Assembly: GCA_963702845.1 (NCBI GenBank) | Contig: OY969763.1 | Span: 2,336,001 to 2,400,000, forward strand | Length of the DNA stretch: 64,000 nucleotides | DNA from: an uncultured Verrucomicrobiae bacterium | GTDB lineage: Bacteria > Verrucomicrobiota > Verrucomicrobiia > Limisphaerales > Palsa-1400 | Reading direction: 5' to 3' | Part shown: positions 10,126 to 26,541 of the stretch, in pieces | How the letters are laid out: the number at the start of each line of letters is the position of its first letter | Position numbering within the stretch: position 1 is the stretch's first letter | The notes under the pieces: model-generated | What the model saw: only the letters and a program-made list of their open reading frames with translations | Told to the model about the DNA's origin: nothing | The model's database searches: none | Translations under genes and position numbers: made by a program

Positions 10126-10440
10126 TTAACATCGGAACAAAATCACCAGATTGGCCAGTGCGCACAAAATTAAAATGATAAGCTCCACTCTGCTCGCTCT
10201 CGAAAAGCCATTACCAACGGTCTTCCTCTGCCTGCCAGCGAACCACAGCCCGACAGAGCCGACTAACGCTGGTGGAGCAAAGAATATCGCTCCGCCCTGC
10301 AACGCCCAAACTTGAGCCGTCCCGCAAAACCGGGCGCTCGGCCCATAAATCTCGTAGTACACCGAGCCAAGAAAATAAGCGTAACACGCTGCGAATACAC
10401 CAAAGAGGCCGACAAATGTTTTGAGTGCTATCGCCTTCAT
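10126..10440 (-). CDS. Small hypothetical membrane protein (possible gene cassette)
   Basis: Three hydrophobic segments; ATG at 10440 lies a few nt after the GTT that ends the repeated element at 10447-10507. Confidence 0.6.
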   Translation of the reverse strand: MKAIALKTFVGLFGVFAACYAYFLGSVYYEIYGPSARFCGTAQVWALQGGAIFFAPPALVGSVGLWFAGRQRKTVGNGFSRASRVELIILILCALANLVILFRC

Positions 10441-10446
10441 GATGGT

Positions 10447-10507
10447 AACAATTAAATCTGCGCCAACTGTTCGCATAGTTTTAATCCGCGAACAAGGGTT
10501 TTAAAGG
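10447..10507 (-). repeat. Dispersed AT-rich repeat, attI-like element, copy 1
   Basis: Minus strand CCTTTAAAACCCTTGTTCGCGGATTAAAACTATGCGAACAGTTGGCGCAGATTTAATTGTT closely matches 25538-25596. Confidence 0.8.
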
Positions 10508-10774
10508 TGGCGCGCAGGTTTGGCGCTGCTTGTAAACTAAATGGCGCTTGACCTCGCCTTGGGCCTTTGGCACAAACGCGGCGTTCCCATGACGCTGTTT
10601 GAGTCCCAGTGTTATCATGGGCCGGGAATCGGTATCCATGGCCTGGTTTTTGGCAAGGCGATCGCGCCGGTCGGGTTTTGCGCGCGTGTCGTTCCTTCCA
10701 CTGCTTTCTCCGTTGACGTCAGTCCGACAACTGCACATCAACGGAGAAACCGCGCGAGTGCGCGGAAATCCCAT

Positions 10775-10806
10775 GTTGGCGCCAACGGGTGCCCGTTGGC
10801 GCCAAC
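10775..10806. repeat. 32-bp inverted repeat built from two self-palindromic GTTGGCGCCAAC 12-mers
   Basis: GTTGGCGCCAACGGG-TG-CCCGTTGGCGCCAAC; perfect 15-bp arms. Confidence 0.9.
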
Positions 10807-10835
10807 TAAACTTTTCCCTCGCCACACCTCTTCAA

Positions 10836-11129
10836 AAAACGCGCCCAGTGAATGTTTCCCTGGCCTCAGGGGCGACATTCCTGCCCTCAGTAGAATCGTC
10901 CCTGAGTTCAGGAACGAATTCCCTGGGTTCAGGGATGTCATTCCTGGCCTCAGTGGCCACGTTCCTGGTCTCAGTGGCGGGATTCCTGAGGCCAGTGGCC
11001 GTTTCCCTGGTCCCAGGGACGCCATTCCTGAGGCCAGTGACGGGATTCCTGGGCCCAGGAATCTAATTCCCGCCCGCAGGATTTGCATTCCCGCCCGCCC
11101 GTTTTCCGTTCCAAAACCCAGTGAGTCAA
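10836..11129. repeat. Tandem array of 14 units with exact 21-bp period and a palindromic core TYCCTG-N4-CAGKRR-N5
   Basis: Units start at 10857, 10878, 10899, 10920, 10941, 10962, 10983, 11004, 11025, 11046, 11067, 11088, with degenerate in-phase units at 10836 and 11109. Confidence 0.95.
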
Positions 11130-11158
11130 CCACATAAACACCTAAAAATAAGATACAT

Positions 11159-11779
11159 ATGCCTAGAAAAGACTTCATCCCAGAATCTAACGATGCCTTC
11201 CTGACGGAGCACGACGCTTACAAGGCCGGCATGGCTGCCGTCGGCTTGACCGTCGGTTTTACCGCCGCGGAAATTACCGCCGTCGCCACCGATAACACTC
11301 TGATGCACACTTCGGTGAGCGATACGGCCACGGCCAAAGCGACCTATCAGGGCAAGGTCAATACCCAGGGCTTGAACCGGGTCCTCATCGAGGGTCGTTG
11401 GCGCGGCAACGCCAAACGCGCCAAAGCCCATCCCGCTTACACGCCGGCCATCGGCGCGCAACTGCGCCTCATCGGCCCGGAAGACACCACCGACCTGGCC
11501 ACGTCCGCGCCGGACCTCAAAGGCCGCGACGCCGGTCTGGGCCACGTGGAAATCCAATTCAGAAAATCCAACGCCACCGGCGTCAACATCTACAGCAGAC
11601 GCGGCAGCGAACCGACCTTCACCTTTTTGGCGCGCGACACCGAATCGCCCTACATCGACACCCGGCCCTTGCTCGACCCGACCAAGCCGGAAGTGCGCGT
11701 CTACAAAATGAAATACGTCCAAGGCGACGTGGAAATCGGCAACTACAGCGATGATCTGGAAGTGACCGTCGCACCGTAA
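11159..11779 (+). CDS. Uncharacterised protein: N-terminal helical region plus C-terminal Fn3-like beta domain
   Basis: Strong coding-like codon bias; Ala/Thr-rich helical N half; C half GVNIYSRRG..FTFLARDTESPYIDTRP..YKMKY..IGNYSD. Confidence 0.85.
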   Translation: MPRKDFIPESNDAFLTEHDAYKAGMAAVGLTVGFTAAEITAVATDNTLMHTSVSDTATAKATYQGKVNTQGLNRVLIEGRWRGNAKRAKAHPAYTPAIGAQLRLIGPEDTTDLATSAPDLKGRDAGLGHVEIQFRKSNATGVNIYSRRGSEPTFTFLARDTESPYIDTRPLLDPTKPEVRVYKMKYVQGDVEIGNYSDDLEVTVAP

Positions 11780-11789
11780 TAACATTTCG

Positions 11790-11827
11790 ACGAACGGCGG
11801 GTTGGTGATATACAACCCGCTGTTCGT
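11790..11827 (+). terminator. Stem-loop downstream of the Fn3-like gene
   Basis: ACGAACGGCGGGTTG-8 nt-CAACCCGCTGTTCGT, 15-bp stem with one G-U pair; no U tract. Confidence 0.55.
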
Positions 11828-11843
11828 AACAAATCATGAAGGT

Positions 11844-12101
11844 ATGAGCATTTCGTTTTTGAGGCGCATTCTGATTACCCTGCTCTCAGTCGGTTGGCTT
11901 GGGCCGACATGGCTTGGTGTTTACATGTATCTCGATTTTTGGCGGGGCGACGGCTGGAAATTACTTCAGGGAATGCAAAATATTGGCAGCTTTCCAGTCA
12001 TCAAGTTTAGCCAAGAATGCTTCAACGTTGGAATGATTTGGTTAGCCATAGCGATTATCTTTTGGAGCTGGAAGTTTTCCCGCACCGAACATCGCACTTG
12101 A
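11844..12101 (+). CDS. Small hypothetical membrane protein
   Basis: Two hydrophobic segments (MSISFLRRILITLLSVGW, VGMIWLAIAIIFWSW); AT-richer than neighbours. Confidence 0.6.
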   Translation: MSISFLRRILITLLSVGWLGPTWLGVYMYLDFWRGDGWKLLQGMQNIGSFPVIKFSQECFNVGMIWLAIAIIFWSWKFSRTEHRT

Positions 12102-12264
12102 AGTTTAACCCATCCGGTTTCAAGACGCGCCATGTTCCTTCCGCCCACGTAGAAACGTGCGAGTTGCGTTTCTGACGTTGGCGCTTAGGGTTGAAAAAGG
12201 AGGGAGGAATTGAGGTGTTGATCAACCCCAGCAAAAACCGCGTGGCCCATCTCATTGGTTTTTC

Positions 12265-12870
12265 ATGAATGCGAACAATGCATCACAAGATTTCCGGCAA
12301 ACCGCAAAGCGGATGGTGCTGTTGCTATTGGCTGCGTGCTGTGTCGGATTCGCCTACAATGCTGCCAGTCCGTTGGGAGTGCGACGCCCCTCGAAGACGC
12401 CTTCTGAAACCGCGCCTGCGGCTCGGTCGCCAAGCGCGGCAAACTTTGGCCCAACCCAACAGCTTGGCCTCTGGCCAATATCTGACGGCCCGTTTACAGA
12501 AGGAGAAACCGACGGCTTAACGCTTGTCGCCGCCGCCACGTCAAAGATGAGTTGGTCCCAGACCAAAGAGTTGCTGGCCCAGAACCAAATCGTCCTGGTA
12601 GACGCGCGCACCGCCGATTATTTCCAGACCGAACATATCCCCGGAGCGGTTTCCTTGCCGGCTACCAGCAGCCAGTCCCAACTTGCCGCCTTCGCCGCCA
12701 ATTATCCCAAAGACACCACGTTGGTGATTTATTGCGCCTCGGCGCAATGTCCGATGGCCGCCGATTTGGCGCGTATCCTGCACAGGAAGTTTGGCTACGC
12801 CAACGTTCACGTGTTGCAAGGCGGGATGGCGGAGTATTTGCGGGCTGAGAGAACCGGGGCAGCAAGATGA
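12265..12870 (+). CDS. Membrane-anchored rhodanese-like domain protein
   Basis: VDAR..HIPGA..VIYC..C..LQGG. Confidence 0.88.
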   Translation: MNANNASQDFRQTAKRMVLLLLAACCVGFAYNAASPLGVRRPSKTPSETAPAARSPSAANFGPTQQLGLWPISDGPFTEGETDGLTLVAAATSKMSWSQTKELLAQNQIVLVDARTADYFQTEHIPGAVSLPATSSQSQLAAFAANYPKDTTLVIYCASAQCPMAADLARILHRKFGYANVHVLQGGMAEYLRAERTGAAR

Positions 12871-12876
12871 AACCAG

Positions 12877-13359
12877 ATGAAAGCTCTCGTTGAGCAGAAT
12901 GTTCGCGTCGCGTTACGGTGGATACTTGGGATCATCTTTATTTGGGCCGCCATTTCCAAGCTAGCCATCCTTCAGGATTTTTTCAGCAGTCTGGCCGCCT
13001 ACAAATTGCCAGTGCCCACCCTGTTGCTACAATCCGTCGCTATCGTCCTCCCATGGCTTGAGCTTTTTTGCGGCTTGATGTTGATAGCGGGATTATGGCT
13101 GCGCCCGGCGGCTTCGTGGGTGTTGGTGCTTTGTATTGTATTTGTGCTGTGCACCGGTCAGGCGTGGGCCCGAGGCTTGGAGATTTCTTGCGGATGTCTG
13201 AACCTCGAATTTCTCGGCCTGAACAATGACGATCATCCGTCCCTGGTCGCTCTGGTGGAATCCGTTCGTTTCGCTTTCGTTCGCGCCCTTATTCTTGCAG
13301 GCGCGTCATTCTGGTTGCTGCGCTCGGTTCGCCCTGTTGTCACAAATCACACAGATTAA
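12877..13359 (+). CDS. MauE/DoxX-family membrane protein
   Basis: LPWLELFCG and RGLEISCGC motifs; four TM segments; 6 nt after the rhodanese gene. Confidence 0.85.
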   Translation: MKALVEQNVRVALRWILGIIFIWAAISKLAILQDFFSSLAAYKLPVPTLLLQSVAIVLPWLELFCGLMLIAGLWLRPAASWVLVLCIVFVLCTGQAWARGLEISCGCLNLEFLGLNNDDHPSLVALVESVRFAFVRALILAGASFWLLRSVRPVVTNHTD

Positions 13360-13404
13360 AGCTTCGGCATGAATATTGCATTTTGAGGGCGACGTCGCAG
13401 TTTT

Positions 13405-14514
13405 GTGAGTGACAAATATTTTATAACAAAGGCCCGTGTTTTGGTCGGCATCGTAACGTTTTCACTTGCGATGCAAGGCGTTGCAAAAAACATGTCATCG
13501 GCCTTCATCGCCCGCAGCGGTGGCGTTGCAACCCCTTTCACCCTGCGATCCCGGCTACCGACTTTCGCAATCAGTGAAGAGAACCGGGTGAAAAACACGC
13601 TGGAAGAACGAATGGCCGGACTAGTTGCCGCGAAGGATTTTGACGGCCTTGATGAGCTCGCCACGCTCTTGCGCCGGTCACAGCTCGAAACCGCTAGCGG
13701 GGTTTGGTATTTATCCACCTTCTATCACATTTTGACCTACGAACCGACTGCCACGCCCAATTTGCCGGAACACGACTGGATGAAGCGGCAGGCGTTCTTG
13801 AAGAAATGGGTTGAGACCAATCCTGTTTCGATCACAGCCCGCGTCGCGCTGGCGAGGTATTGGAAGAACTACGCCTGGAAAGTCCGCGGCAATGGATTGG
13901 CAAACACAGTAACGCCGGAAGCATTGGATTTGTTCGATGCGCGGCTGCAGAAAGCAGGTCAGGTCCTGGCAGACGCGCGAAAGCTCAGGACGAAATGTCC
14001 GGTGTGGTGGGACACGATGCAATGTGTCGCGCTTGGCCGAAGCTTTAAGCTGAGCGATTATAACCGCATTTTTGAAGAAGCGGTGAAATTCCAGCCGGCA
14101 TACACACAATTTTATATCAACAAGGCAACGTATTTGACGCCACGCTGCTACGGCAAGGAAGGCGATTGGCAGAAGTTTGCGACTGACGCAGCAGATAAAA
14201 TCGGCGGCGATGCGGGTGACACTCTATATGCACGCATCGGCTGGCGCCTGCATCAACGCGGTTTCTACGAAGCGTTTTTGCGGGATTCTGGCTATTCGTG
14301 GAAGCGCATGAAAAGCGGCCTTCAGCTGATCGTTACGAAGCACTCGGAGTCGCTCACGCCGGCCAGTGAGTTGGCATATCTGGCCTACCAGGCTGGAGAC
14401 CAAAAATGCGCTAAGCCACTCTTCGCGCGTATCGGGAAGGTTGTGGATCGCGGAACCTGGCACGATGACATGTCGCGATTCATTCGCGCGCGGACCTGGG
14501 CGATGTTGGATTGA
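13405..14514 (+). CDS. DUF4034-like helical protein
   Basis: AWKVRGNGLANTV and LTPRCYG motifs; start uncertain. Confidence 0.75.
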   Translation: MSDKYFITKARVLVGIVTFSLAMQGVAKNMSSAFIARSGGVATPFTLRSRLPTFAISEENRVKNTLEERMAGLVAAKDFDGLDELATLLRRSQLETASGVWYLSTFYHILTYEPTATPNLPEHDWMKRQAFLKKWVETNPVSITARVALARYWKNYAWKVRGNGLANTVTPEALDLFDARLQKAGQVLADARKLRTKCPVWWDTMQCVALGRSFKLSDYNRIFEEAVKFQPAYTQFYINKATYLTPRCYGKEGDWQKFATDAADKIGGDAGDTLYARIGWRLHQRGFYEAFLRDSGYSWKRMKSGLQLIVTKHSESLTPASELAYLAYQAGDQKCAKPLFARIGKVVDRGTWHDDMSRFIRARTWAMLD

Positions 14515-14537
14515 ACCGTTGATCGTGAAGTGAAAAC

Positions 14538-15461
14538 CTAGACCGCCAGCGCGTCCTTGCAATATTTCAGGGCGCGGGCGATTTCGGTCATTCGATCGGA
14601 GCCAACCGGAACTTTGTATTCGAACTCGATCGTCCCCTGGATTGGCCACTTGTTATCGCGGATTAGCCGGAGAACATCTGCGATTGGTGTGTCGCCTTCG
14701 CCGAACGGCGTGTTCGGGCCGTTGTGTTTTTTGCGATCCTTCAAGTGCACGTGAGTGACGCGGTCGTGATATTTTTCGATGAACGGCGCGGGTGAAGTGT
14801 TGTTTCCGGCGACGAAATGGCCGAGGTCCACATTCGCGCCGTTGAACTTCGCCAGTGAAAACGCCAATTCCCAATGCTCCGGCGTCGTCTCGGCGTGGCC
14901 GTGATAGCCGACCATGAGCTGGTGTTTATCCGCGAATTTGCCGACACGTTTCAACTCCTCCTCCTTGCGCGAAATCTCGGTCGATATGGCGCGGCCGCCG
15001 AGGGCTTTGGCGAGAGCAAAAACGTAATCCAATTCGGCGTCAGTTATTTTGAAGATGCCATCAACCTTTACGATTTCGATCAACACACCCGCGTTTTCAA
15101 ACATCTTCCGAAACTTCGCGGCCTTGCTGACGGGCGCTGACTTTCGCCAGTTTGCTAGCGCTTCGCTTTGCGCAGAAGTGCGCGCCTTTGCAAAGATGAT
15201 TTCTTTGGGCGCGCCCAAAAACATTTCCACCGGCTGCGTCCGCAACTCAACGCCGCTGAAGCCTAGTTGCACGCAATTCTTCAGAACGTCTTCGCCGCTC
15301 ATCGACGGATTGTTGAAACTGTAAGGCACGTTGAGTCCAAGCTGCACTCCGCGGACCTTCGAGTTCGGCTTTGGCGGCGCGGCGATGCAAGGCACGGCGG
15401 AAGCGCCTGCAATGGCCGCCAAGGTTAATTTCGAAAATTCGCGCCGCGTCAAAGATTTCAT
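14538..15461 (-). CDS. Tat-exported sugar phosphate isomerase/epimerase (xylose-isomerase-like TIM barrel)
   Basis: TRREFSK Tat motif; DLGH, HVHLKD, IEFE metal-binding motifs. Confidence 0.88.
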   Translation of the reverse strand: MKSLTRREFSKLTLAAIAGASAVPCIAAPPKPNSKVRGVQLGLNVPYSFNNPSMSGEDVLKNCVQLGFSGVELRTQPVEMFLGAPKEIIFAKARTSAQSEALANWRKSAPVSKAAKFRKMFENAGVLIEIVKVDGIFKITDAELDYVFALAKALGGRAISTEISRKEEELKRVGKFADKHQLMVGYHGHAETTPEHWELAFSLAKFNGANVDLGHFVAGNNTSPAPFIEKYHDRVTHVHLKDRKKHNGPNTPFGEGDTPIADVLRLIRDNKWPIQGTIEFEYKVPVGSDRMTEIARALKYCKDALAV

Positions 15462-15671
15462 ATTGGAGCAGAGACCTTATCACCAGCGGCCTGCGCGCCA
15501 AGCCGAATCAATCCCTTGTCAACATATTCGACATGGCTGCGGTTGAACCATCAGGCGATGGCTTACCCCACGATAAAGATTGGCAGGGATTACTTTTTTC
15601 CCTGCGGCGGTATTCTCGACCAAGGTTGGAACGCGAAGCTATCCACAAAAAATGGAAACCACTTTGTGATT

Positions 15672-16772
15672 GTGAAAATCACGCTTGCCGCACTTTATCG
15701 AATCGCTATCGGTCCCTGGATCGCAGCAGCCGGCATGTTCCTCCTCACCGGTTGCACGCATCTCGGTCCCCGAACCGTCGCAGTGGATCGGTTCGATTAC
15801 AACACGGCTATCGGCGACTCCTGGAAAGAGCAGACGCTGATTAATATCGTAAAGCTGCGCTATATGGATTTGCCGGTGTTCATGGACGTGTCGTCCGTGG
15901 TCAGCGGTTATTCCATGCAAACAGGTGTCAATATCAATGGCACGCTATCTTCTCAGAACGCGGTCCAGGGCAACTTCGGCGCAATTGGTGGACAAGCTAT
16001 CTACACAGACCGCCCCACCATCACCTACGTGCCGATGACCGGGGAAAAGTTCCTGCGCGGGCTCATCACACCAATTGATCCAAAGAGTATTTTCTTCCTG
16101 CTCCAGTCCGGTTATGCGGCGGATTTTATCTTGAGCCTGGCCGTCGAATCACTCAACGGTGTGCGCAACCGCTCGACTGCCGGCGGCACCGTCCGGGACG
16201 CCGATCCGGAGTTTATCCGTGCGCTGGCCTTGCTGCGTGAAGTGCAGGCGGCCGGTGCGTTCGGGATGCGCGTGGAGGAGAACAAGGTCACAGGCGGAAC
16301 TGGCGTGGTGTTTTTCCGGCGCGGCGACGTGCCACCAGAGATCGAGGCAAAGGGGGCAGAAATTCGCCGATTGCTCAAGCTGGCTGCCAATCCGCAGAAG
16401 TTCACGCTCGTTTATTCGCCGGTGCCCGGAAAGGACAATGAACTGGCCGTAAACAGCCGCTCGATGCTCCAAATCATGCAGGCGTTTGCCAGCCATATAG
16501 ACGTCCCCGAGGCACATCTGAAGGATAAGAGCGCATGGGGCTCATCTCAAAACACCACAGCTGAGGGCGCGCTCCGAACCGTTCGGATTTACAGCGGCAA
16601 GAGCAAGCCGGCTTCGGCCTTCGCCGCCGTCCATTACCGCGACTACTGGTTCTGGGTTGATAACTGCGACCTGCAATCCAAGCGCACGCTCACGGTCATT
16701 ATTTTCTTTTTCACGTTGGTGGACACGGGCACTCCCGAAAAACTGCCGCTGATTACCATTCCTGCACAATGA
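15672..16772 (+). CDS. Hypothetical lipoprotein
   Basis: Lipobox LLTGC; LINIVKLRYMDLPVF and DRPTITYVP segments; start uncertain (ORF open from 15516). Confidence 0.75.
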   Translation: MKITLAALYRIAIGPWIAAAGMFLLTGCTHLGPRTVAVDRFDYNTAIGDSWKEQTLINIVKLRYMDLPVFMDVSSVVSGYSMQTGVNINGTLSSQNAVQGNFGAIGGQAIYTDRPTITYVPMTGEKFLRGLITPIDPKSIFFLLQSGYAADFILSLAVESLNGVRNRSTAGGTVRDADPEFIRALALLREVQAAGAFGMRVEENKVTGGTGVVFFRRGDVPPEIEAKGAEIRRLLKLAANPQKFTLVYSPVPGKDNELAVNSRSMLQIMQAFASHIDVPEAHLKDKSAWGSSQNTTAEGALRTVRIYSGKSKPASAFAAVHYRDYWFWVDNCDLQSKRTLTVIIFFFTLVDTGTPEKLPLITIPAQ

Positions 16773-17386
16773 TGCCGCTACGACCACGGACGCCTCAGCA
16801 GGCGCTTCATTGCCTGATAGAAGGAAATGAGCGATTCATCCGTGGAGAGGCAAAACACGGCAGCATCTCGCAGCAGGCTTTCGCGCGAATGCGCGGCGGC
16901 CAGAGACCCTTCGCCGTGGTATTGGGCTGCAGCGATTCACGCGTGCCGCCGGAACTGGTGTTCGATCAGGGTTTCGGCGATCTGTTCGTGATCCGAATCG
17001 CCGGCAACGTCATCGCGCCTGGCGTGACCGGCAGCATCCAGTATGCTCATAGACACCTTGGCACGTCACTCATGGTCATTCTCGGGCATGAGGACTGCGG
17101 CGCGGTGAAGGCAGCACTGGCGGCCCGGTTCTGCCGCGCGAAGCATCCGGAGCGGATTCGCCAGCTTGTCACATTGATCAGCCCGGGCGTCAGGAAGATT
17201 GACCCCATGCAATCAGCAGCAAAGCTGCTTCGGGCTGGCGTCGAAGCCAATGTACGCTGGTCGATGCACCAGTTAATTCGCACTCCGGAAATTCAGCGAG
17301 CCAACCGGGAAAAACGGAACATCCTGATCGTCGGCGCGGTTTACGAGCTGGCAACCGGAAGGGTCCGCTGGCTGGAACCCTGTTAG
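16769..17386 (+). CDS. Beta-class carbonic anhydrase
   Basis: Zn ligands in CSDSRV and GHEDCGAV; 4-nt overlap with the upstream gene. Confidence 0.93.
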   Translation: MMPLRPRTPQQALHCLIEGNERFIRGEAKHGSISQQAFARMRGGQRPFAVVLGCSDSRVPPELVFDQGFGDLFVIRIAGNVIAPGVTGSIQYAHRHLGTSLMVILGHEDCGAVKAALAARFCRAKHPERIRQLVTLISPGVRKIDPMQSAAKLLRAGVEANVRWSMHQLIRTPEIQRANREKRNILIVGAVYELATGRVRWLEPC

Positions 17387-17637
17387 AGTTGAATCGACCA
17401 GCCTCCCTGCCCCGCCGCAACGCCTTTGTCACCAGTTCGCTCTGTTCGCCAGCCGCGCCGCGTTCCTCACTGGACGCTACAACTATCTCAACCGCGTCGC
17501 GGCAACACCTCTTGCTATCGCGATGCGATACCAACCCGCGGATTCACGGCGGCTGTTTCGGTGTTTAGAGGCACACCTCCTGGGAAGCCATTTCAATTCA
17601 GTGATAAGTGAAAAGTGATGAGTAATCGATGGTGGCA

Positions 17638-17677
17638 GATTACTTCTGATTACCTCCGATTACTTCTGATTACCTTT
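17638..17677. repeat. 4 x 10-bp tandem repeat
   Basis: GATTACTTCT GATTACCTCC GATTACTTCT GATTACCTTT. Confidence 0.9.
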
Positions 17678-17796
17678 TTAGATTTTTTCTCGTCAATGGC
17701 CGCAAAACTTTACCGTTTGTTTACCATTTCTTTACCGAATTTGACGGGTAAGGGATTTCGCGCGACGGAGGCAAAGGACGCGAGCCCATAGGCGCA

Positions 17797-17836
17797 CGTG
17801 ACCAAAGATGACTGAACGTGACCGAACGCGACCAAC
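17797..17836. repeat. 4 x 10-bp tandem repeat
   Basis: CGTGACCAAA GATGACTGAA CGTGACCGAA CGCGACCAAC. Confidence 0.8.
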
Positions 17837-18480
17837 CGTTGTCGCCGCTGCATTTTGTAACAGCCTCGATTTGCAGAAATGAGGCAAAAACGGTGCAGAA
17901 ATAGTGCAATTTTCGTTTTGAAGTTCTCGCGAAGGGCGCAACGGCCGCGAAGTTTGCGATGATCTTTGGCGCGGAGGAACTTGGATTTAGTGTCTGAAGA
18001 ATGCATTCGTTAAAACAAGTTGATGGTTGAGGGTTGATCCGTCTGCGTCTGACTTCGGCGCGACAGGTAGTTGGTCGAACGCGATGCTCTGTCATGTGTG
18101 TATAGGGTGAGCGTTTCGCCGCTCGGGCGTCTAGCGAAGCAACGCGAAACAAAGCGAAACTATGCGACATTCGGGCAGATTTCTGAAGATGGCTCATACT
18201 GACCGACTGGCACGGGCACCCTCTTCTGCGCGGCACGTTTGCGTAAAAATCCGCAGCCGGCTTTTTCGAATGCGGATGCGGCACCGGCTTCGCCGGCGTC
18301 TTGATAAACTGATGGCTCTTGTTCATGCGCAAATTTTTATCACACGTTTTCAGAAAATTTTCCAAAGCTCGTTTCCCATCATGCACCTGCATGCACTGAC
18401 ACGCCCTACCGCGCCGCAACACGCCATTTTTCTATGCAAAAAAGTTTTGACAGGGTTTAGAAATCGCGAAGGCACTCCGA

Positions 18481-18555
18481 AGCCCCGTAGGCGCGACATG
18501 ATTATAGCCCAGCGGTGAAGGCGCAGGACTGACGAGTTGCGTCGAAACCCTGGGT
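18481..18555. repeat. REP-like palindromic element
   Basis: AGCCCCGTAGGCGCGAC followed by GCCCAGCGGT...ACCCTGGGT imperfect inverted arms. Confidence 0.5.
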
Positions 18556-18784
18556 AACCCGCCTCAATCGCAGATTCACTTTCGCGCAGCGGCGACGAAG
18601 GGGTTAAACACATGTGTTCTCTTGGCAGAACACAAGGCCAGCCATATCCAGACTTAGACGTTCTTGCGATGCGAACGATACCGCAGGCAAAGTGATACCA
18701 GGATTATGACGCCAGATACAGGCTGTTACCACTAGCGCTCAGATGAAACGAAAGCTTTAAAAGCGGGCGAGAGCCGATTCATGC

Positions 18785-21697
18785 TCACGGAACGTAAATA
18801 TCGGTTGTACTGGTGTAGGTAGGTGGGGTTGAGGCGGGGGCTACGATGGGGCTCAGGCCTCCGGCTACGAGCACTTCGCCGCTCTGCATGACGGTGGCGG
18901 TGCCGATGGTGTGGGAATTGGGCATGATTCCCCCATTGCTCCACGTAGCCGCAACCGGATCGTAAATTTCGGAGCTGTAGAGGCGACCCAAGCCATCGCC
19001 TCCAGAGGCTAAAATTTTACCATTCGGGAGGAGGGCCGCGGTGTGCAGCCATCGGGCGGTTGATAGAGAGGCTGTTGAGGTCCAATTACCGGTCGATGGG
19101 TTGTAGAGTTCGCAACTGGTCAGGAATGTGCCGTGGGTAGTGGAGTAACCGCCGACTGCTAAAGCTTTGCCATTGGGCAGAACGGTGGTGCTGAAGTAGT
19201 AACGGTCAGTGGACATCGAGCCGGTGACGGTCCATGCGCCGGTGGCTGGATCGAAGATTTCTGCGCTATTCAGAGAGCCGTTGGAGCCGTTGTCGCCGCC
19301 GGTGATGAGGACTTTTCCATTTTGCAACAGGACGGCGGTGTGGACGAAGCGGGCAGTGTGCAGGGAGTTGGTCAGCGTCCATGTGGCGGTGGATGGGTCG
19401 TAGATTTCTACCGTTGCGGTCGCGTGTCCTGAGGCCGGAATGTAGCCGCCGACGGCAAGGGCTTTTCCGTTTTCAAGGAGCGTAAGGGTGTGGAGAGAGC
19501 GATTGACGTTAAGCGAGCCGGTGTTGGTCCAGAGTGCTGTGGCGGGATCGTAAATTTCGCAGCTTGTCAGGATTGTTCCGCCGGAATCGCCGCCCGCGAT
19601 CAAGACAGTTCCGTTGGTGAGGCTGACGGCGGAGCTATAAGCGCGACTAGTGTTTAGCGGAGACGTTTCAGTCCAGTTTCCCGCGCTGGGGTTGAATAGA
19701 TCGCTGTTGTTGAGCGTGCCGTAGCTTGTCACGCCGCCTGCGATTAAAACGTTGCCGTTTGAAAGCAGGGCTGCAGTGTGCCAATCGCGTGAGACGGGCA
19801 TGTTTGCGCCGGGGTGCCAGCCGGTTTTTTGCAAACGGAAGAAGCGCATCGGGTCGGTGAAGTTGTTTGTGTAATGGAGGTTTGCGGACAGTAAATCCAT
19901 CCACGGGCCGGTGATATTCGTGGCCGTTTGCAGGACAAAGTTGGTGTCGGTCCAATTCACGACCATGCTGCTGGCGTTGTGGGTGAACGTGATGGTTGGC
20001 GCGTAGGGAACGACTTCACCCGTATTGAGTATGGCGGCGAAGTAGGTTCCAGCGGGGAATCCGGTGGGATTGAGGAACCGGATTTGGCTTAATTGAGAAC
20101 TGGTTAGGCCGGTGACGGTTGTGCCGAATTTAAGTTGGGTGTTACCACCACCGGAGAGGGAACCGTTCCAGTTCGCGATGGTGAGCGTGGCTGCGCTGCT
20201 CCAATTTTGTGAATGGCTGTCGGCAAAGGTTAGGACCGCGCTGTTGCCGGTGAAGTTGATGGCGGCGTGGTTGAGGAAGGTTTGGGTGAGGTCGCCTTGG
20301 GGCAATTCCCAATTCGTGACGATTTGGCTGGCGAGGATGAAATGGCCGAGGTGTTCGGCGACGATGCCGACGTCGAGAATGCCGGAGAGTTGGAAATAAC
20401 CGGAGTTGGTAATTCGATTGGCTTGGGGCGAATCGCCGATGGTCAATTCGGCGTCGAGTTGAATATTGCTGGCGGTCAGCGTGCCGCCAGAGAAGGTGTA
20501 GACACCCGGAACGGTCGGGCCATACAGCGCGTGTGGCCAGTAGCCGGAAAATACAAAGAGATTCGTGACGATGAAAGTGCCGCCAGTTTGTGAGATGTAG
20601 ACGGTTCCGGCGGTGTTCACAACATTTGCACAGCGGAGTGTGCCGCCGGAAAAACCCATGCTGCCGGGCGCGAACGTTGCGCCACGGATTTCGATGTCGC
20701 CGGCAATTGAAACCAAAGAATTGGCCATATCAAATTCACATGGTCCTCCAGCGCCATCGAGGATGAGATTTTTCGCAATGAGAGTGCTGCCGCTCAAACT
20801 ATAAACCATCCGAGTGCCTTCCCACGGAAAATGAAAGGCAGAGCCAGCAAGGTAAATGGCGTTGGTGACGACGGCCAATGAACCCGACTGGGCGAACAAT
20901 CCCTCGTCGCGATCATTTATTGCCAGACTTATTGAGTCCGCAAAGAGCGCGCCGCTGTTCACATGAAATTCCGAATGGCTGATGATCCCCATCTTCACTG
21001 GGCCAGTCGAGTTTGTGCCGCCTTCCTGGTCGAAATAAGAGCCGCCTTCTTGACCGTTCAGGTCGATATTGCTGGAAATGAGGAGGCCGCCATAGAGAAA
21101 GTACGGTCCATTGTACATTTCGATCGTACCGGTCGTGACTTTGCCGCTGTATTGATAAAACGGACTGTCGATCATTGTGAAGCCGCCGCATTGGAGTTCG
21201 CCGTTGTTCGTCAATGTGTAGGAACCGAATCCAGCGAGTGTGAGCCCGCCTATGCTGGCGAACCCGCCGCTTTGCAAGACCGGACCTCCTGCCAAAGCGC
21301 CATCGACAACTAAACCGGAGTTATAGATCAGAACTGGTCCGTTATCAAAGATGGCGATGTTGCCCAAAACGTGAAAGGGAACGTTGGTGCCGAAATTTGT
21401 CAGGAGCAGAGTGTTGTTGGCGCTCATCTCAACAATTGCAACTTTCATCGAATTGGACGCGACTTGGACAGTGGTTTGATCGACCGTGATGACCTTCGTT
21501 CCGTCGTTGGTGATGTCGATTATTTGTGAGCTGTTTGGAAGGATGTTGAGGGACCATGAGTTTGTATTTTCCCATTTTCCACTGGCCGGGTTGATCCAGG
21601 AATTGGTTTGCGCACGCAGGCCAGGTGTCGGAAGAACAAGCGTTAGGGTGATGAATAGAACAATTGTGAGCCATTGCGGTAACCTGCTTGTCTTCAT
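18785..21697 (-). CDS. Secreted protein: Gly/Thr-rich passenger-like beta region, internal FFRL-type domain, C-terminal Kelch beta-propeller
   Basis: Signal peptide; GGTL/SGGT repeats; six Kelch repeats (HTA.LL.NG.VL..GG...EIYDP....W). Confidence 0.88.
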   Translation of the reverse strand: MKTSRLPQWLTIVLFITLTLVLPTPGLRAQTNSWINPASGKWENTNSWSLNILPNSSQIIDITNDGTKVITVDQTTVQVASNSMKVAIVEMSANNTLLLTNFGTNVPFHVLGNIAIFDNGPVLIYNSGLVVDGALAGGPVLQSGGFASIGGLTLAGFGSYTLTNNGELQCGGFTMIDSPFYQYSGKVTTGTIEMYNGPYFLYGGLLISSNIDLNGQEGGSYFDQEGGTNSTGPVKMGIISHSEFHVNSGALFADSISLAINDRDEGLFAQSGSLAVVTNAIYLAGSAFHFPWEGTRMVYSLSGSTLIAKNLILDGAGGPCEFDMANSLVSIAGDIEIRGATFAPGSMGFSGGTLRCANVVNTAGTVYISQTGGTFIVTNLFVFSGYWPHALYGPTVPGVYTFSGGTLTASNIQLDAELTIGDSPQANRITNSGYFQLSGILDVGIVAEHLGHFILASQIVTNWELPQGDLTQTFLNHAAINFTGNSAVLTFADSHSQNWSSAATLTIANWNGSLSGGGNTQLKFGTTVTGLTSSQLSQIRFLNPTGFPAGTYFAAILNTGEVVPYAPTITFTHNASSMVVNWTDTNFVLQTATNITGPWMDLLSANLHYTNNFTDPMRFFRLQKTGWHPGANMPVSRDWHTAALLSNGNVLIAGGVTSYGTLNNSDLFNPSAGNWTETSPLNTSRAYSSAVSLTNGTVLIAGGDSGGTILTSCEIYDPATALWTNTGSLNVNRSLHTLTLLENGKALAVGGYIPASGHATATVEIYDPSTATWTLTNSLHTARFVHTAVLLQNGKVLITGGDNGSNGSLNSAEIFDPATGAWTVTGSMSTDRYYFSTTVLPNGKALAVGGYSTTHGTFLTSCELYNPSTGNWTSTASLSTARWLHTAALLPNGKILASGGDGLGRLYSSEIYDPVAATWSNGGIMPNSHTIGTATVMQSGEVLVAGGLSPIVAPASTPPTYTSTTDIYVP

Positions 21698-21837
21698 TTT
21701 GCTACTTCCAACACGCTGCTGAGCCTTTCCTCCGAAAGCCGAGTAGTTGACTCAATTAGCGTAAGCAGATGATTGCTGCTGCCTATCGGCAACGGCCTGT
21801 AATTGAGGCCGGAATTCCCCGCAGTGCTTCACAATCC

Positions 21838-21902
21838 GACTACTCCCACTGTCCGCCTCCCGACGCGGCCTATCTTGGATGAAGGGCGACAGTCCGAGAG
21901 CG
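21838..21902 (+). repeat. 65-bp dispersed direct repeat A, copy 1
   Basis: 59/65 identical to 23866-23930 by manual alignment. Confidence 0.9.
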
Positions 21903-21992
21903 AACAGCAGAGCAGTCAAAAAAAGAACATGAAAACAAATAAGCAAAATACAAATAAAGAAACGCCAAGGCTCATGAACTGAATCGCACAAC

Positions 21993-22021
21993 CCACGCCA
22001 TAGATTTGCTACCTCTGGACT
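21993..22021 (+). repeat. Partial (5' half) copy of the attI-like element
   Basis: CCACGCCATAGATTTGCTACCTCTGGACT versus CCACGCCAAAGATTTGCAACCTCTGGACT at 25486. Confidence 0.8.
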
Positions 22022-22065
22022 GCGTGCTATTGACAAAACAACCGCCGCTCGTTTGACTCGCATCG

Positions 22066-22214
22066 GCTGTAGGCGATGCCAAAACTATCACCGTCCGCAC
22101 TGTCATCCCGAAGGGACCGGCTCTGACACCGACGAGCGAACAGGCTCAGTCCCGGGAAATCCAGGTATGACGGCGGAGGGAGCCTCCGCGAACTCCCTGC
22201 GCATCGCCTACAGC
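22066..22214. mobile_element. 149-bp element bounded by perfect 14-bp inverted repeats (MITE/REPIN-like)
   Basis: GCTGTAGGCGATGC (22066-22079) and GCATCGCCTACAGC (22201-22214); no target duplication identified. Confidence 0.5.
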
Positions 22215-22221
22215 TTGCTAA

Positions 22222-22272
22222 CAACCCCCTCAACTTCCCTTGAATAATCACGCGCAGCTCCGTCGCAGCCGT
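22222..22272 (-). pseudogene. 3' fragment of a terminase-large-subunit-like gene, copy 1
   Basis: Translates TAATELRVIIQGKLRGL; shares TGAATAATCACGCGC and flanks with 25393-25476. Confidence 0.5.
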
Positions 22273-22311
22273 CCGCTCTAGGTAATTCCAACGCTGATTA
22301 AATAAGACTCG

Positions 22312-23277
22312 CTATTTATGTTGGCGATACGCGGCTGAAAGCGAATAGACCCTGGCACGTAACGCGGGCAGCGGGTCATCGGACAATTCGATCCCATCCG
22401 TCAAGTGCGTCGGATCGTATACCATTTCTCTTTCGACTCCGGCACTGTCAGCCACAATCGACGTGATGCTAACCGTCCCGACCTCAATTGTCTTGCGGTC
22501 GTCAGGCCACACGAGCGAGGGATCGCTTGTGAGATCGTCAGCGTTTGGGAGTTGCACGACCAAACGGAAGTGGATCGGCCCGGTCGCCAGGCGCGTCTGG
22601 AGGTCTTGAATGAGAAAATCGGCTGTTCTGGTTTTTGCTTCGGCATCACTGAGGTCTTGCCGGCCAGCAACCGGAACAATCTGGTAGCGTCCGGCTTGTT
22701 TCACTCCATTCCTATTTACGAAAACAAATGCGTCATTCGAGAAAAACGCCTCGCTGGCGAAGCTGGCTGGCACCACGCGATTGTCCTGGACGAATTTCAG
22801 CGCGTGAGGATGTGTTCCTAAAAATTCTTCAATGGGCCATGGATGTGGTTTGCGCGGATCGGTAGCGACAACGGCTTTTTGCAGCGCGAGAAACTCTTCA
22901 CCGGTTCCTACGATGAAACCATTGTGCGACATCGCGACGATGTCTGGATTCCCACCATCAGGGAGGTTGAACCTTATTGCCATTCCGCGGGGACCGGCGT
23001 CCGGCGAGTTATCCGGAATGTAAGGATTGGGCGAGCCGTCTGAAAACCGAACTGTGATGGGCACCGAAGCGTTAAAATGAGCGGCTTTGGAGAGAGTCGC
23101 CGCCTTCGCTGAGGGCACAAAAGTTCCCTGGCATACAATGCCTTTCGCGTGGACAGGACGGGAGCCCGACGTGTTTCCGGGCGCTTGAATCATGGTATCG
23201 AAAATTTGCTGGGCAAGGTCCTGCTCCGCCAGAGGTTCAACATCTGCTTTCCGATTTGGGTTTAGTGTTGTTTTCAT
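22312..23277 (-). CDS. Catalase-related peroxidase (SrpA-like small catalase)
   Basis: RPVHAKG, VRFS, RGMAIRF, SDDPLPALRARVY with the proximal Tyr. Confidence 0.9.
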   Translation of the reverse strand: MKTTLNPNRKADVEPLAEQDLAQQIFDTMIQAPGNTSGSRPVHAKGIVCQGTFVPSAKAATLSKAAHFNASVPITVRFSDGSPNPYIPDNSPDAGPRGMAIRFNLPDGGNPDIVAMSHNGFIVGTGEEFLALQKAVVATDPRKPHPWPIEEFLGTHPHALKFVQDNRVVPASFASEAFFSNDAFVFVNRNGVKQAGRYQIVPVAGRQDLSDAEAKTRTADFLIQDLQTRLATGPIHFRLVVQLPNADDLTSDPSLVWPDDRKTIEVGTVSITSIVADSAGVEREMVYDPTHLTDGIELSDDPLPALRARVYSLSAAYRQHK

Positions 23278-23865
23278 GAGATTCATCTTGGCGATGAGGG
23301 CTGTCCCGTGCCACTCGTTCCCATCGCGTTCATGCCGCAAGGTGACAGTGCTGGGCCACTTGGCAATTGCTGAATTTCCCTATTTTGAATTGCTGGAAAA
23401 AAATTCAAAAAATAAAACAGGCGCTGGTCGGGTTCCGTGGTTCGGTGTTGCGGTTTTATCATGATGGTGTTCATAAGCCAGTTCAGTTCTGGGTCGCGTG
23501 CGGTTCCCCGTCGTCGTGCGTGCCGCGTTTGCCATGGTGGCAGCCGTGGGTTTGGATGTTCATCATGGTGATGGGTTGGTCCCGGTCTTTTCCCCGTCCG
23601 CGTTTCCCGCATCGGTATCATTCGCACTGGCGCTAGTCGCCCAACGCTCATGTGACTCCAACGACCCTGTTTGCTGCCGACTCCGCAAGCTCCGCGGCAG
23701 CATACGGAAAGTCAGTTCGCTTTGCTCAATAGTGTCGAACGGGAACGCCGCTCGCCCTCTTTCCCTTCTTGCTACGTCCCTATCTATTTCCCCCTCGTGC
23801 CGCCCGCGCATTGCCCCTCGCTCACCGACACGCTTCAGCAGGGGGACAACGCGGCGCCTTCTGAA

Positions 23866-23930
23866 GACTACTTCCACTGTCCGCCTGCCAACGTGGCCTA
23901 TTTTGGATTAAGGGCGACAGTCCGAGAGCG
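23866..23930 (+). repeat. 65-bp dispersed direct repeat A, copy 2
   Basis: 59/65 identical to 21838-21902. Confidence 0.9.
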
Positions 23931-24197
23931 CGACCACGATTCGCGATAGCGAAAAACTCTTTATGGGCACCTGACTAGTGGCGGGCTTGGGAGGGCAACC
24001 TGAGGAGTTAAAAAAAGAAGATGAAAACAGAAAACACTGTAAACAAAACTGACGCTTCTCCATAGATTTTACAGATTTGCAAGGGAAATGCCTATTGGAG
24101 TCTAAAACTCGAAGTCGCTACTGTTCAGTTAGTTGACTGCTCATCCAGAAAAACCCCGCCCGATTGGCACAAAATGTGGTGAAAACATCGAAACCAT

Positions 24198-24365
24198 ATG
24201 AGACTCGGAAAATTTTCAATCGTCGCAGTCGCGTTACTCGCTATCCTGAGCACTACGTCCTATGCGCCGCCGCCTGCTTCACTGCCTGATGCTAGCAGCA
24301 CCGTGGGATTGTTGGGCTGTGCGTTTGTTGGTTTGGCAGGGTTGCGCTTCTGGTTGAAAAAATAA
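24198..24365 (+). CDS. 55-aa protein: signal peptide plus VPDSG-CTERM/PEP-CTERM-type sorting domain
   Basis: Manual translation MRLGKFSIVAVALLAILSTTSYAPPPASLPDASSTVGLLGCAFVGLAGLRFWLKK; absent from the ORF track. Confidence 0.8.
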   Translation: MRLGKFSIVAVALLAILSTTSYAPPPASLPDASSTVGLLGCAFVGLAGLRFWLKK

Positions 24366-24626
24366 TTAATTTCAAACCGCGGGTGGTCGTCGCACAGACG
24401 ACGAACACGGCCAGCCCGTCAAAACCGTTTATCGCGTGGGTGGCCGTATGCTAACACCTCGCGCGTGTGATGTCTGCCGAGCGAACGCTTGAACTCATCA
24501 ACGAAGCACATCCACCCGTTGAAGTAGAAGCCGCCGCAGCATAGTAGTGGCCGTACGCTAGCACATTGGCTCGCGTCCGCCCAGGGCGCGAGCCATTCCT
24601 TTTGGAGACTCACGTCGTCTCCAAAC

Positions 24627-24708
24627 CTCCACGCCAGAGATTTGCAACCTTTGGACTCCGCTCTCTTTTCCCCCTATAAAACCCTCGTTCGCATATTAAT
24701 TGTTGGGC
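24627..24708 (+). repeat. attI-like element, copy 2 (internally deleted), ending in GTTGGGC
   Basis: CTCCACGCCAGAGATTTGCAACCTTTGGACTCCGCTCTCTTTTCC nearly identical to 25484-25528; ends ATTAATT-GTTGGGC (GTTRRRY). Confidence 0.8.
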
Positions 24709-24717
24709 GAAGCATAC

Positions 24718-25380
24718 ATGCTAGCTCTTGCTAAACATTACTGGAGCCTGATTCGAGGTGCCAAGAACTGGTTTGCCTTTACCACGTGCCTTTTTCTCTG
24801 CGGCTGTCTTGCCGGTGTCGTAATGGGAATCACAAAACCAGGCCTGGCTGAGAGCGTGCTAGACCGATTGCTTGATGGCGACGCGGGTGGCGCGAGTGGA
24901 TTTGAAGATGCCATCCTTATCCTCACGAACAACTTACTGATCACATTTGTGAGTTGGTGTGGAAGTTTAGTCCTGGGTCTGCTTCCCCTCTATAAGATCC
25001 TTTCAAATGGATTCGTACTTGGGGGCATATTTGTTGAGAGCCGTCAGGAAATCCCAGCGTTTCAATTCTTTCTCACGCTCTTTCCACACGGAATCGTCGA
25101 GGTTCCGGCAATATTCCTCTCCAACACCTTTTTCTTAAGGCTTGGTGTGAGATGGGCTTTCCAGAAGAACGGAGCTGATCGGAAGCGAACGTTTGTTATT
25201 GACTTCAAAGACAGCTTTGAAGTAGCTCTCCTGTGCGTCCTTTTGTTCTTCATCGCCGCTATTATCGAATCCTTTGCGACGCCGAAAATAGTAGATGCAT
25301 TCTATCCCAAGCCGAAAGCACAAGGGGTCCAACAATGCGCTCCAGCTCATGGCCGAGGCGCGGGGACGCTCCGGCCATAG
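24718..25380 (+). CDS. Stage II sporulation protein M (SpoIIM/DUF95)-like membrane protein in a cassette-like unit
   Basis: ILTNN, NGFVLG, PHGIVEVPA, AAIIESFATP motifs. Confidence 0.88.
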   Translation: MLALAKHYWSLIRGAKNWFAFTTCLFLCGCLAGVVMGITKPGLAESVLDRLLDGDAGGASGFEDAILILTNNLLITFVSWCGSLVLGLLPLYKILSNGFVLGGIFVESRQEIPAFQFFLTLFPHGIVEVPAIFLSNTFFLRLGVRWAFQKNGADRKRTFVIDFKDSFEVALLCVLLFFIAAIIESFATPKIVDAFYPKPKAQGVQQCAPAHGRGAGTLRP

Positions 25381-25386
25381 CTGAGC
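25327..25386 (+). other. Integron attC-like site lacking the R' box
   Basis: GTCCAAC (RYYYAAC), 5 nt, GCTCCAGCT-C-ATGGCCG...CGGCCAT-AGCTGAGC; pairing leaves two unpaired C; no downstream GTT. Confidence 0.7.
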
Positions 25387-25392
25387 TTTCCA

Positions 25393-25476
25393 TCACAACT
25401 CCCTCATCTTCGCCTGAATAATCACGCGCGGCTTCGTCGCGCCCAGATACCGCAACGCATCCGCCGCATCGTCACC
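25393..25476 (-). pseudogene. 3' fragment of a terminase-large-subunit-like gene, copy 2
   Basis: Translates GDDAADALRYLGATKPRVIIQAKMREL-stop; DDxxDALRY resembles the C-terminal nuclease motif of large terminases. Confidence 0.65.
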
Positions 25477-25483
25477 CCAAAAT

Positions 25484-25596
25484 CTCCACGCCAAAGATTT
25501 GCAACCTCTGGACTCCGCTCTCTTTTCCAGAAGAGCGCCTATAAAACCCCTGTTCGCCATTAAAATTATGCGAACAGTTGTCGCATATTAATTGGT
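25484..25596 (+). repeat. attI-like element, copy 3 (longest; final GTT reads GGT)
   Basis: 5' half matches 24627-24671; 3' half matches 10447-10507 on the minus strand. Confidence 0.8.
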
Positions 25597-25646
25597 CCAG
25601 GCGACTTGCGGTGACGCGAGGCTGCAATGACACTTTATGCGCATTT

Positions 25647-26117
25647 ATGAATCCCGACATCATTCATGCTCTTAAGATCGGCGCTATCGTAGTCGCGGGG
25701 ACGATGACCGGCAGCGAACTTGCCGTGGCGATGTTCTTTCACCCTCGTATCAGCCGCCTTGACGACGCGGTGCATATCCAAGCCGCCCAGACATTGGCGA
25801 AGGTCCTCGGCATGGTGATGTCGTTCTGGTATCCGCTTACATTTCTGCTTTCCCTTGCAGTGACTTTCGTTGCGCACACGACACGAGGCACGCCGTGGTG
25901 GCTGGCACTCGCCTCAACGGCGCTTTTTGCCCTCATAAGTGTTTACTCCCTGCTCTTGCCAGTTCCGATCAACAACCAGGTTGCCCGCTGGCAGCCTGAT
26001 ACGGTGCCAGCAAATTGGCGAGCTTTGCGCCGGCGCTGGGATTTGCTTCATGCTATCCGGGTCGCCTTTTTAGTTATCGCTCTGATTCTTCTCGTTGCAT
26101 CATGTGTTTGTGTATGA
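25647..26117 (+). CDS. DUF1772 (anthrone oxygenase-like) membrane protein
   Basis: VPINNQVARW..P.NW..LRRRWDLLHAIR; four TM segments. Confidence 0.85.
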   Translation: MNPDIIHALKIGAIVVAGTMTGSELAVAMFFHPRISRLDDAVHIQAAQTLAKVLGMVMSFWYPLTFLLSLAVTFVAHTTRGTPWWLALASTALFALISVYSLLLPVPINNQVARWQPDTVPANWRALRRRWDLLHAIRVAFLVIALILLVASCVCV

Positions 26118-26541
26118 ACAGCCCTGGTGCGACGCCGACGTTCGGCTCGCCGAATAAATGCAACACCTCAGCCCACATACACGCCTCCTTATGGGACCAT
26201 AGTCTAGCCGAACCGCTGCCACTGGTCTGAAAGTCACATCAGGGCACGCCTGTATTCGCGATCAGACAATCAACTAAATTATTCGGTGGAGGGAATTAAA
26301 AACCCCCGTCTGTGGTAGTTTTGCGGGTATTTTACGTGCCGAACACCAAGGCGAATCAGCGCGCCAACCTGCAACGGCGGTTTTCAAAAGCCTTGTCAAG
26401 TATTTCACTAGTCCCATAGCTTAAGCGGCGAAAGGCACTCCGCCGTTTGCTTGAAAACAAACTGCCGTTTATATTTGTCTGCGCGGTGACTTTGTCCCCA
26501 AGCGCATCGGTTTGAGGAATGTGGGATTGAGAAAGGTTTGA

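Follow-up and report, generated by a model that had tools for sequence, protein, structure and literature searches.

Dispersed attI-like sites, nearly each with a different cassette-type gene, in a Verrucomicrobiota genome without a detectable integron integrase

Results

The window analysed here is a stretch of 64,000 nucleotides (C1:2336001-2400000; contig OY969763.1) from an uncultured Verrucomicrobiae bacterium (assembly GCA_963702845.1), whose genome is a single contig of 6.03 Mb that is 89.8% complete. At the end of an intact kinase gene and again among fragments of terminase genes, the window carries three copies of an AT-rich element with internal dyads that always stands just upstream of a gene (Table 1). 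The original prediction, made from the letters of the window, read this element as attI, the attachment site of integrons. The three main copies are present where it placed them, and the internal deletion that it saw in copy 2 is the loss of one of two tandem units. Genome-wide, we find about 47 orphan copies; the genome has no detectable integrase, and nearly every copy is followed by a different cassette-type gene.

A repeated element upstream of cassette-type genes

An nhmmer profile built from 34 copies collected by BLAST gave 51 matches at E<=1 and 46 at E<0.01 across the whole genome, and none in the reversed genome. The 46 matches at E<0.01 and the short window copy 2 make up our working set of 47 copies, which fall into 24 clusters on both strands. 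This agrees with the predicted distributed arrangement rather than one array, but the picture of solitary sites with one cassette each was too narrow: 11 copies share one cluster, and several stand ahead of runs of attC, the cassette-borne sites. A 19-nt core pattern occurs twice in the window, against 0.00 expected (100 shuffles).

All copies have in common a core of about 56 bp. The element is built of one or two tandem units of about 29 bp, each a dyad with a 5-bp spacer, and terminates in an L/R simple site with the crossover at G|TT. When 39 of the 47 copies were aligned on G|TT (the other eight anchored poorly without gaps and were omitted), conservation extended from about -53 to +2, faded from +3 to +6 and was lost by +7; the anchor spanned -13 to +4, so that conservation inside it is partly circular, which does not apply to the loss past +6. 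Similarity thus ends where the original prediction had it end, with the proviso that window copy 3 is degenerate: its crossover position (25594) reads GGT instead of GTT, and 53 nt separate it from the ATG at 25647. The cores have diverged (median pairwise score 0.72), and many retain an intact simple site. A LexA-box reading of the dyads was rejected, as the Verrucomicrobia LexA box has a spacing of 4 nt, which the 17-nt dyad does not fit.

What had been noted as one element comprises two modules, the core and a left arm that is also found without the core. The arms form at least eight groups plus singletons, and the right sides are unrelated. One arm group is represented in the window at 21993-22024, 24629-24661 and 25486-25518; copy 1 has a different arm from that at 21993-22024. 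Two additional 5' halves of the element had been proposed. The one at 21993-22021 is not attI and belongs to a ~33-bp arm of a terminase-island family (21993-22024) that also occurs without the core, and the one at 24058-24082 matches only itself in the genome. In arm family F (C1:1826918 and C1:2638509), a hairpin that has an AT-rich loop and reaches up to 13 bp overlaps the left end of the core.

Thirty-nine of the 47 copies could be scored for downstream genes (one truncated copy was skipped, five had no crossover and two no open reading frame (ORF) of at least 60 amino acids). Their first ATG lies at a median of 17 nt past the G, and the genes have a median length of 139 amino acids. Behind these 39 copies stand 38 distinct genes, with one homologous pair only. 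The predicted small membrane-protein gene behind each copy holds for all three window genes, which encode two to four hydrophobic segments, but genome-wide for only 27 of the 39.

An R''+L'' motif of attC type occurs near the stop codon of 13 of the 39 first genes and of 305 of 3971 control ORFs (Fisher p 5e-6), an enrichment flattered by the fact that the motif was made by hand after the data were viewed. Independent of the motif threshold, R'' complements the cassette's own R' (29 versus 21.1+-2.9 for shuffled partners, p 0.008). In relatives, the same R'/R'' complementarity reaches 27 versus 19.0+-1.9 (p 0.001; 7 of 14 scored loci, with 11 of 25 loci unscorable). An attC profile gave 27 genome-wide matches at E<1 and one in the reversed control, while a strict attC regular expression (7 versus 3 in the control) was not used. 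The expectation that downstream genes end in attC is borne out by the enrichment and by window copy 2, but not by copies 1 and 3 of the window. Degraded sites and attCs are numerous, as are attCs that have been cut off.

Integrase genes in this genome and in relatives

No intI gene, pseudogene or stub was found in this genome by Pfam, TIGR02249, tblastn or clade-specific DNA and protein profiles. Eleven proteins match PF00589; the two best are XerC/D-like, and another four that were inspected are not IntI-like. XerC/D-like proteins also give the best TIGR02249 score (85.9 bits versus a cut-off of 265), and the IntI protein profile of the clade described below finds only the two XerC/D-like proteins. 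The left arms were considered as intI remnants, and this was rejected for this genome, in which the clade DNA and protein profiles find no stub. HUH Rep genes were likewise absent from the genome. Since no intI, stub or HUH Rep was found, these searches give no support to a working system with an integrase acting in trans; the predicted loading in trans can stand only as history or as the work of a visiting enzyme.

Among 40 relatives, TIGR02249 matches were found in eight. In relative G015, whose IntI scores 281 bits against that cut-off, the stretch running divergently from the start of intI terminates in 25 bases almost identical to those of our element. A search with this IntI led to an IntI clade in the family and order, with records nearly all labelled Limisphaerales or Verrucomicrobiota, and IntI-family genes are present in 173 of 401 genomes of the order. 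Homologous sites adjoin the 5' end of intI, in divergent orientation, in G015, G043, G045, G048, G170, L098 and L102. One-unit sites, as in window copy 2, stand beside full-length intI in G015, G043, G045 and L098, and two-unit sites, as in copies 1 and 3, in G048 and G170; the length class of copy 2 is that of the intI-adjacent site in G015 and L098. Searched with a profile made from the copies of this genome alone, 51 outside loci yielded 14 matches at E<=1, the majority at the start of intI, and the reversed control yielded none. The predicted neighbourhood of element and intI is thus found for homologous sites in relatives, but for none of the 47 copies in this genome. A short-form pattern search missed loci known to match (for example G015), and its blanks were not counted.

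Among 23 family-level intI matches, 18 are 5' stubs, most of them still joined to an attI-like site and a different cassette. Relatives G008, G011, G014, G016 and G017 hold 9, 6, 5, 2 and 3 dispersed copies of the site, respectively, and no full intI. That five relatives without intact intI hold two to nine dispersed copies with intI stubs suggests that multiplication is lineage-wide, and they show an earlier-looking stage of it. At 12 of 25 loci (L144-L168, from the same five genomes) the stubs end 255-267 nt away from the crossover, which either one ancestral deletion or selection for a promoter could explain.

In G015 and G043 intI abuts an HUH Rep gene (PF23343). An intI stands within about 1.5 kb of Rep at two of 18 loci and is missing nearby at the other 16, so that the idea of Rep and IntI always travelling together was rejected. 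This Rep occurs at two of ten full clade intI loci, and a third locus carries another HUH-like ORF. A motif of the Rep-intI junction survives in stubs of G008 and G014. A 52-bp trace (86%) of that motif lies at G000:C1:4348203-4348254 in the genome under study, about 30 kb from the cluster of 11 copies.

Several loci in relatives deserve description in their own right. At L025 (G015:C220, 27-2383), L029 and L030, full-length intI is convergent with HUH Rep (PF23343) and a small ORF that we read as ssDNA-binding-like (single-stranded DNA; no family match); in G015 the unit adjoins a tRNA-Gly 3' fragment and is possibly a rolling-circle mobile integron. L026 (G013:C192, 970-1307 and 3370-4371) has an intact intI with an attC-like site in place of its attI and, 2 kb from it, a truncated intI with attI, cut beside an IS200-like (Y1) transposase gene. 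At L055 (2891-3652), a 102-nt duplication (89%) of the gltX upstream region, including the first codons, brackets an attI-gene-attC unit.

Terminase islands and local duplication

The genome encodes seven full genes for the terminase large subunit (terL) and five portal genes. A copy of the element lies divergently upstream of four of the five portal genes, and three of the seven full terL genes face a unit of element and cassette. Within 25 kb of terL or portal genes we count 21 of the 47 copies (null mean 3.1, p 0.005). In two pairs of sister loci, the left flanks match at 92-93% over 1.8 kb, and the cassettes from G|TT on are unrelated. The congener G002 has the same arm and site with an 86%-identical terL. 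Blocks, arms and terL stubs from the same island family make up a mosaic in the window from 21.8 to 26.2 kb; copies 2 and 3 are part of a decayed terminase-island relic, and copy 1 lies by a host kinase gene, at its 3' end. Blocks of island relic 2 match islands near C1:137-141 kb, 1718-1719 kb, 2246 kb and 4290-4294 kb (76-97%, 30-280 nt).

Cassettes are often trailed by short copies of the 3' ends of convergent genes, starting at stop codons. Translations of these stubs resemble kinase and terL ends, and one class ends in what we take to be a phosphoketolase C-terminus. The 3' end of the window kinase gene is the source of a kinase stub that is repeated at five loci linked to the element elsewhere. 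Around different genes, window copy 1 and the copy at C1:1299234 agree over 80 nt on the left flank and 118 nt in the stub on the right (98%). Stubs or cut attCs are joined to arms mostly at short microhomologies, read by eye. Linkage between core and arm is weak (p 0.12, 0.03 and 0.09).

Features of the window

The cassette gene behind copy 1 has no Pfam or PADLOC match and no recognisable attC (fold z +0.66). The attC of cassette 2 has a bottom strand that folds at -17 kcal/mol (z -2.5), and its final R' GTT is lost where it is joined to the terL stub. Rfam gave no match in the window and PADLOC none for four window proteins; a scan confined to sigma-70-type promoters had no match in 24300-26300. 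No RNA data set turned up among the sequencing runs listed, in all of which the share was 0.07 or less.

Table 1. Features of the window around the three copies of the attI-like element
Feature	Position	Strand	Details
Intact Ser/Thr kinase gene	7933..10104	+	convergent on cassette 1
First cassette gene behind copy 1	10126..10440	-	104 aa, 2 hydrophobic segments, ATG 10440
attI-like copy 1, long two-unit form	10443..10503	-	core 10449-10503, crossover G 10449, E 3e-17; arm family A to ~10526
Island relic 1	21838..22266	+	conserved island block, arm without attI (21993-22024), terL 3' stub (22221-22266, terL antisense)
Island relic 2	23396..24661	+	ends in arm C (24629-24661)
attI-like copy 2, short one-unit form	24676..24708	+	crossover G 24702; deletion between direct repeats
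Cassette gene behind copy 2	24718..25380	+	SpoIIM-family membrane protein (PF01944)
attC of cassette 2	25327..25392	+	R'' matches 6/7 of the cassette's R'; bottom-strand hairpin, bulged base
3' stub of terminase large subunit gene	25393..25476	-	begins at stop codon
Arm C and attI-like copy 3, long form	25486..25600	+	arm 25486-25518; core 25540-25600, E 1e-15
Gene behind copy 3	25647..26117	+	anthrone oxygenase family (PF08592); no recognisable attC (z -0.43)

Three further features were seen in the window. An array of imperfect tandem repeats of about 21 bp each occupies 10859-11089, with one related array at C1:516915. Between the arm and the terL stub, about 120 nt are enclosed by a perfect 14-bp inverted repeat (22066-22079 / 22201-22214), which occurs once in the genome and is Rfam negative. 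A catalase-domain gene (22312-23340, minus strand) is inserted between two island relic blocks.

Discussion

The accessible part of the literature on attI1 describes an L/R simple site with direct repeats and a crossover at G|TTRRRY (PMC9892861; 10.1101/2022.09.11.507474). The element described here resembles the attI of class 1 integrons in standing divergent from the intI start in relatives, in its simple site ending at G|TT with repeated accessory units, and in the promoterless gene with matching attC directly behind it; this is a likeness of organisation and position. It differs in occurring in about 47 copies instead of one per integron, in a genome without intI, and in its one- and two-unit length variants. 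Homologous sites at intI starts in relatives, similarity ending at G|TT and cassette-like downstream genes support the predicted attI call, and judged by sequence the element is very probably the attI site of a Verrucomicrobiota IntI clade. The original prediction was to be given up if relatives had no intI-adjacent copies and downstream genes no attC enrichment; homologous intI-adjacent sites and such enrichment were both found.

We propose, with a probability of about 0.6 for the account as a whole, that attI multiplied mainly by riding in multi-copy terminase/portal islands, where it would occupy fixed places in the terL-portal interval. Further copies may have arisen by microhomology-joined duplication of units that comprise arm, attI, gene and flank stub. 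IntI would bind the dyads and load cassettes at G|TT, the enzyme being ancestral or brought in transiently by a mobile element, and most copies today are presumably inert or latent docking sites.

A number of observations weigh against this proposal and the identification beneath it. The other 26 of the 47 copies, including all three in the window, lie beyond 25 kb of a full terL or portal gene, and the motif behind the attC enrichment was hand-made. No recognisable attC follows 26 of the 39 first genes, those of window copies 1 and 3 among them, which points to decay. With the profile from this genome's own copies, the best intI-adjacent match has E 0.003 and most outside matches have E 0.01-0.9; the stretch that supports homology to intI-adjacent sites is a short AT-rich motif. 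The exact long subfamily stands beside no intI, its single metagenome match and the G002 copies having none nearby; the long-form pattern had no match in the 40 relatives, and a BLAST-type search of 30 family genomes found the element in G002 only. Finally, the exchange of cassettes in place may be the work of IntI or of homologous recombination inside the cores, and both explanations stand.

Could the landing pads instead be maintained and reloaded in trans today, by IntI encoded on an unassembled replicon or supplied by a mobile IntI carrier that infects recurrently? Closely related sister loci with different cassettes, the intact simple site of many cores, and the frequency of IntI-family genes in the order, some beside a rolling-circle Rep module, would fit such a live distributed integron. 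We nevertheless consider it improbable, given a genome in which every intI search was negative, the divergence of the cores, the GGT of copy 3 and the many attCs that are cut off. Exact-pattern scans of viral contigs gave no match and no viral relative of the clade IntI was found, so that a free viral carrier of the element is without support from these scans. It is also unlikely, though somewhat less so, that each copy is the remnant of a separate small mobile integron, made up of HUH Rep, an ssDNA-binding-like gene, intI, attI and a cassette, that integrated at a secondary site and then lost Rep and intI. The predominance of 5' intI stubs in the family, the five multi-copy relatives without full intI, the Rep-intI junction motif in G008 and G014 stubs and the 52-bp trace at C1:4348203 agree with this history, as do flank stubs that start at convergent-gene stop codons, often at G|TT-like positions, as attG insertion would leave. 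However, this genome has no intI stub or Rep, Rep and intI are seldom neighbours in relatives, and shared arms and junctions indicate that many copies descend from each other.

Self-spreading of attI as an attI-type cassette, in which IntI excises a unit from attC or attG to attI and the circle integrates at any attC, appears as doubtful as a live distributed integron. Class 1 and 2 integrons are known to contain such cassettes, which are mobile there, according to the accessible part of PMC12901181; the L055 unit (host segment, attI, gene and attC between gltX-region duplications) has the expected composition, and the copy at C1:4310125 follows an intact attC via a short stub. Yet an attC start within 150 nt to the left was found for only 5 of the 39 copies and an intact L'/R' end for only one, whereas other copies are fused to an arm at short microhomologies and not at G|TT. 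Both repeated Rep-intI integration and attI-type cassette hopping are compatible with spread in islands and may have contributed to it. That the element is no att site at all, but the end of a miniature inverted-repeat transposable element (MITE), a mobile promoter or a repressor operator common to accessory genes, is extremely improbable. Its internal dyads, AT-richness and constant place upstream of a gene would suit these roles, but the varied left arms and unrelated right sides, compared without a separate search for target-site duplications, provide no constant second end or terminal inverted repeat, no sigma-70 match covers copies 2 and 3, and neither the position at intI starts nor the R'/R'' complementarity would be explained.

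Island-borne multiplication with loading at G|TT can be compared with known systems. CALINs and SALINs, clusters of attC sites and single attC sites without integrase, are defined by attC only, as far as the accessible text of PMC4889954 and 10.1101/2022.09.11.507474 goes; the accessible part of the former adds that attI is not searchable in most integrons and that surveys are blind to attI outside classes 1-3. As in CALINs and SALINs, cassette genes and attC sites, such as the window attC at 25327-25392, are dispersed here in a genome without intI, but these integrase-less units retain their own attI, and many lack attC. Attachment sites within cassettes (attI-type and delta-attI-type) are rare and mostly truncated, and lie in clinical class 1 and 2 arrays beside intI in the accessible part of PMC12901181. 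Our copies likewise include extra attI downstream of a gene or stub and tandem gene-attI-gene runs, but are full-length, spread over 24 chromosomal clusters and mostly joined otherwise than by clean IntI crossovers. The accessible part of 10.1101/2022.09.11.507474 documents attG insertion by attC at GWT and reports that attI did not integrate into genomes at a significant rate, which argues against attI jumping alone to arbitrary sites.

Phages and their satellites have accessory-gene hotspots with variable cargo at a fixed position between core genes. The phage-like islands described here share this arrangement, but attI marks the position, and behind it the cassettes differ between sister islands of one chromosome. 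Integron parts have been found in phages (accessible part of PMC9892861). In the literature searched, which excluded most subscription papers and supplements, we found no account of genome-wide attI multiplication.

Multiplied attI is a new variant of integron organisation that appears lineage-wide. We tentatively picture an integron platform that has become uncoupled in this lineage, although we lean against the full picture: attI would hitch-hike on phage-like islands and chromosomal hotspots as dozens of first-position landing pads, a transient IntI, for example from a small rolling-circle element, would reload them, island particles would export captured genes, and host gene ends would be packaged as pseudo-cassettes. 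Models of integrons presuppose a single attI for each integrase. Orphan attI sites by the dozen would be a route to CALINs and SALINs that preserves the entry site, and would tie cassette capture to phage-like islands. Many attI copies would also let many cassettes occupy the first position simultaneously. With 47 natural variants in one- and two-unit forms and a cognate IntI clade, attI specificity and loading in trans are open to direct test.

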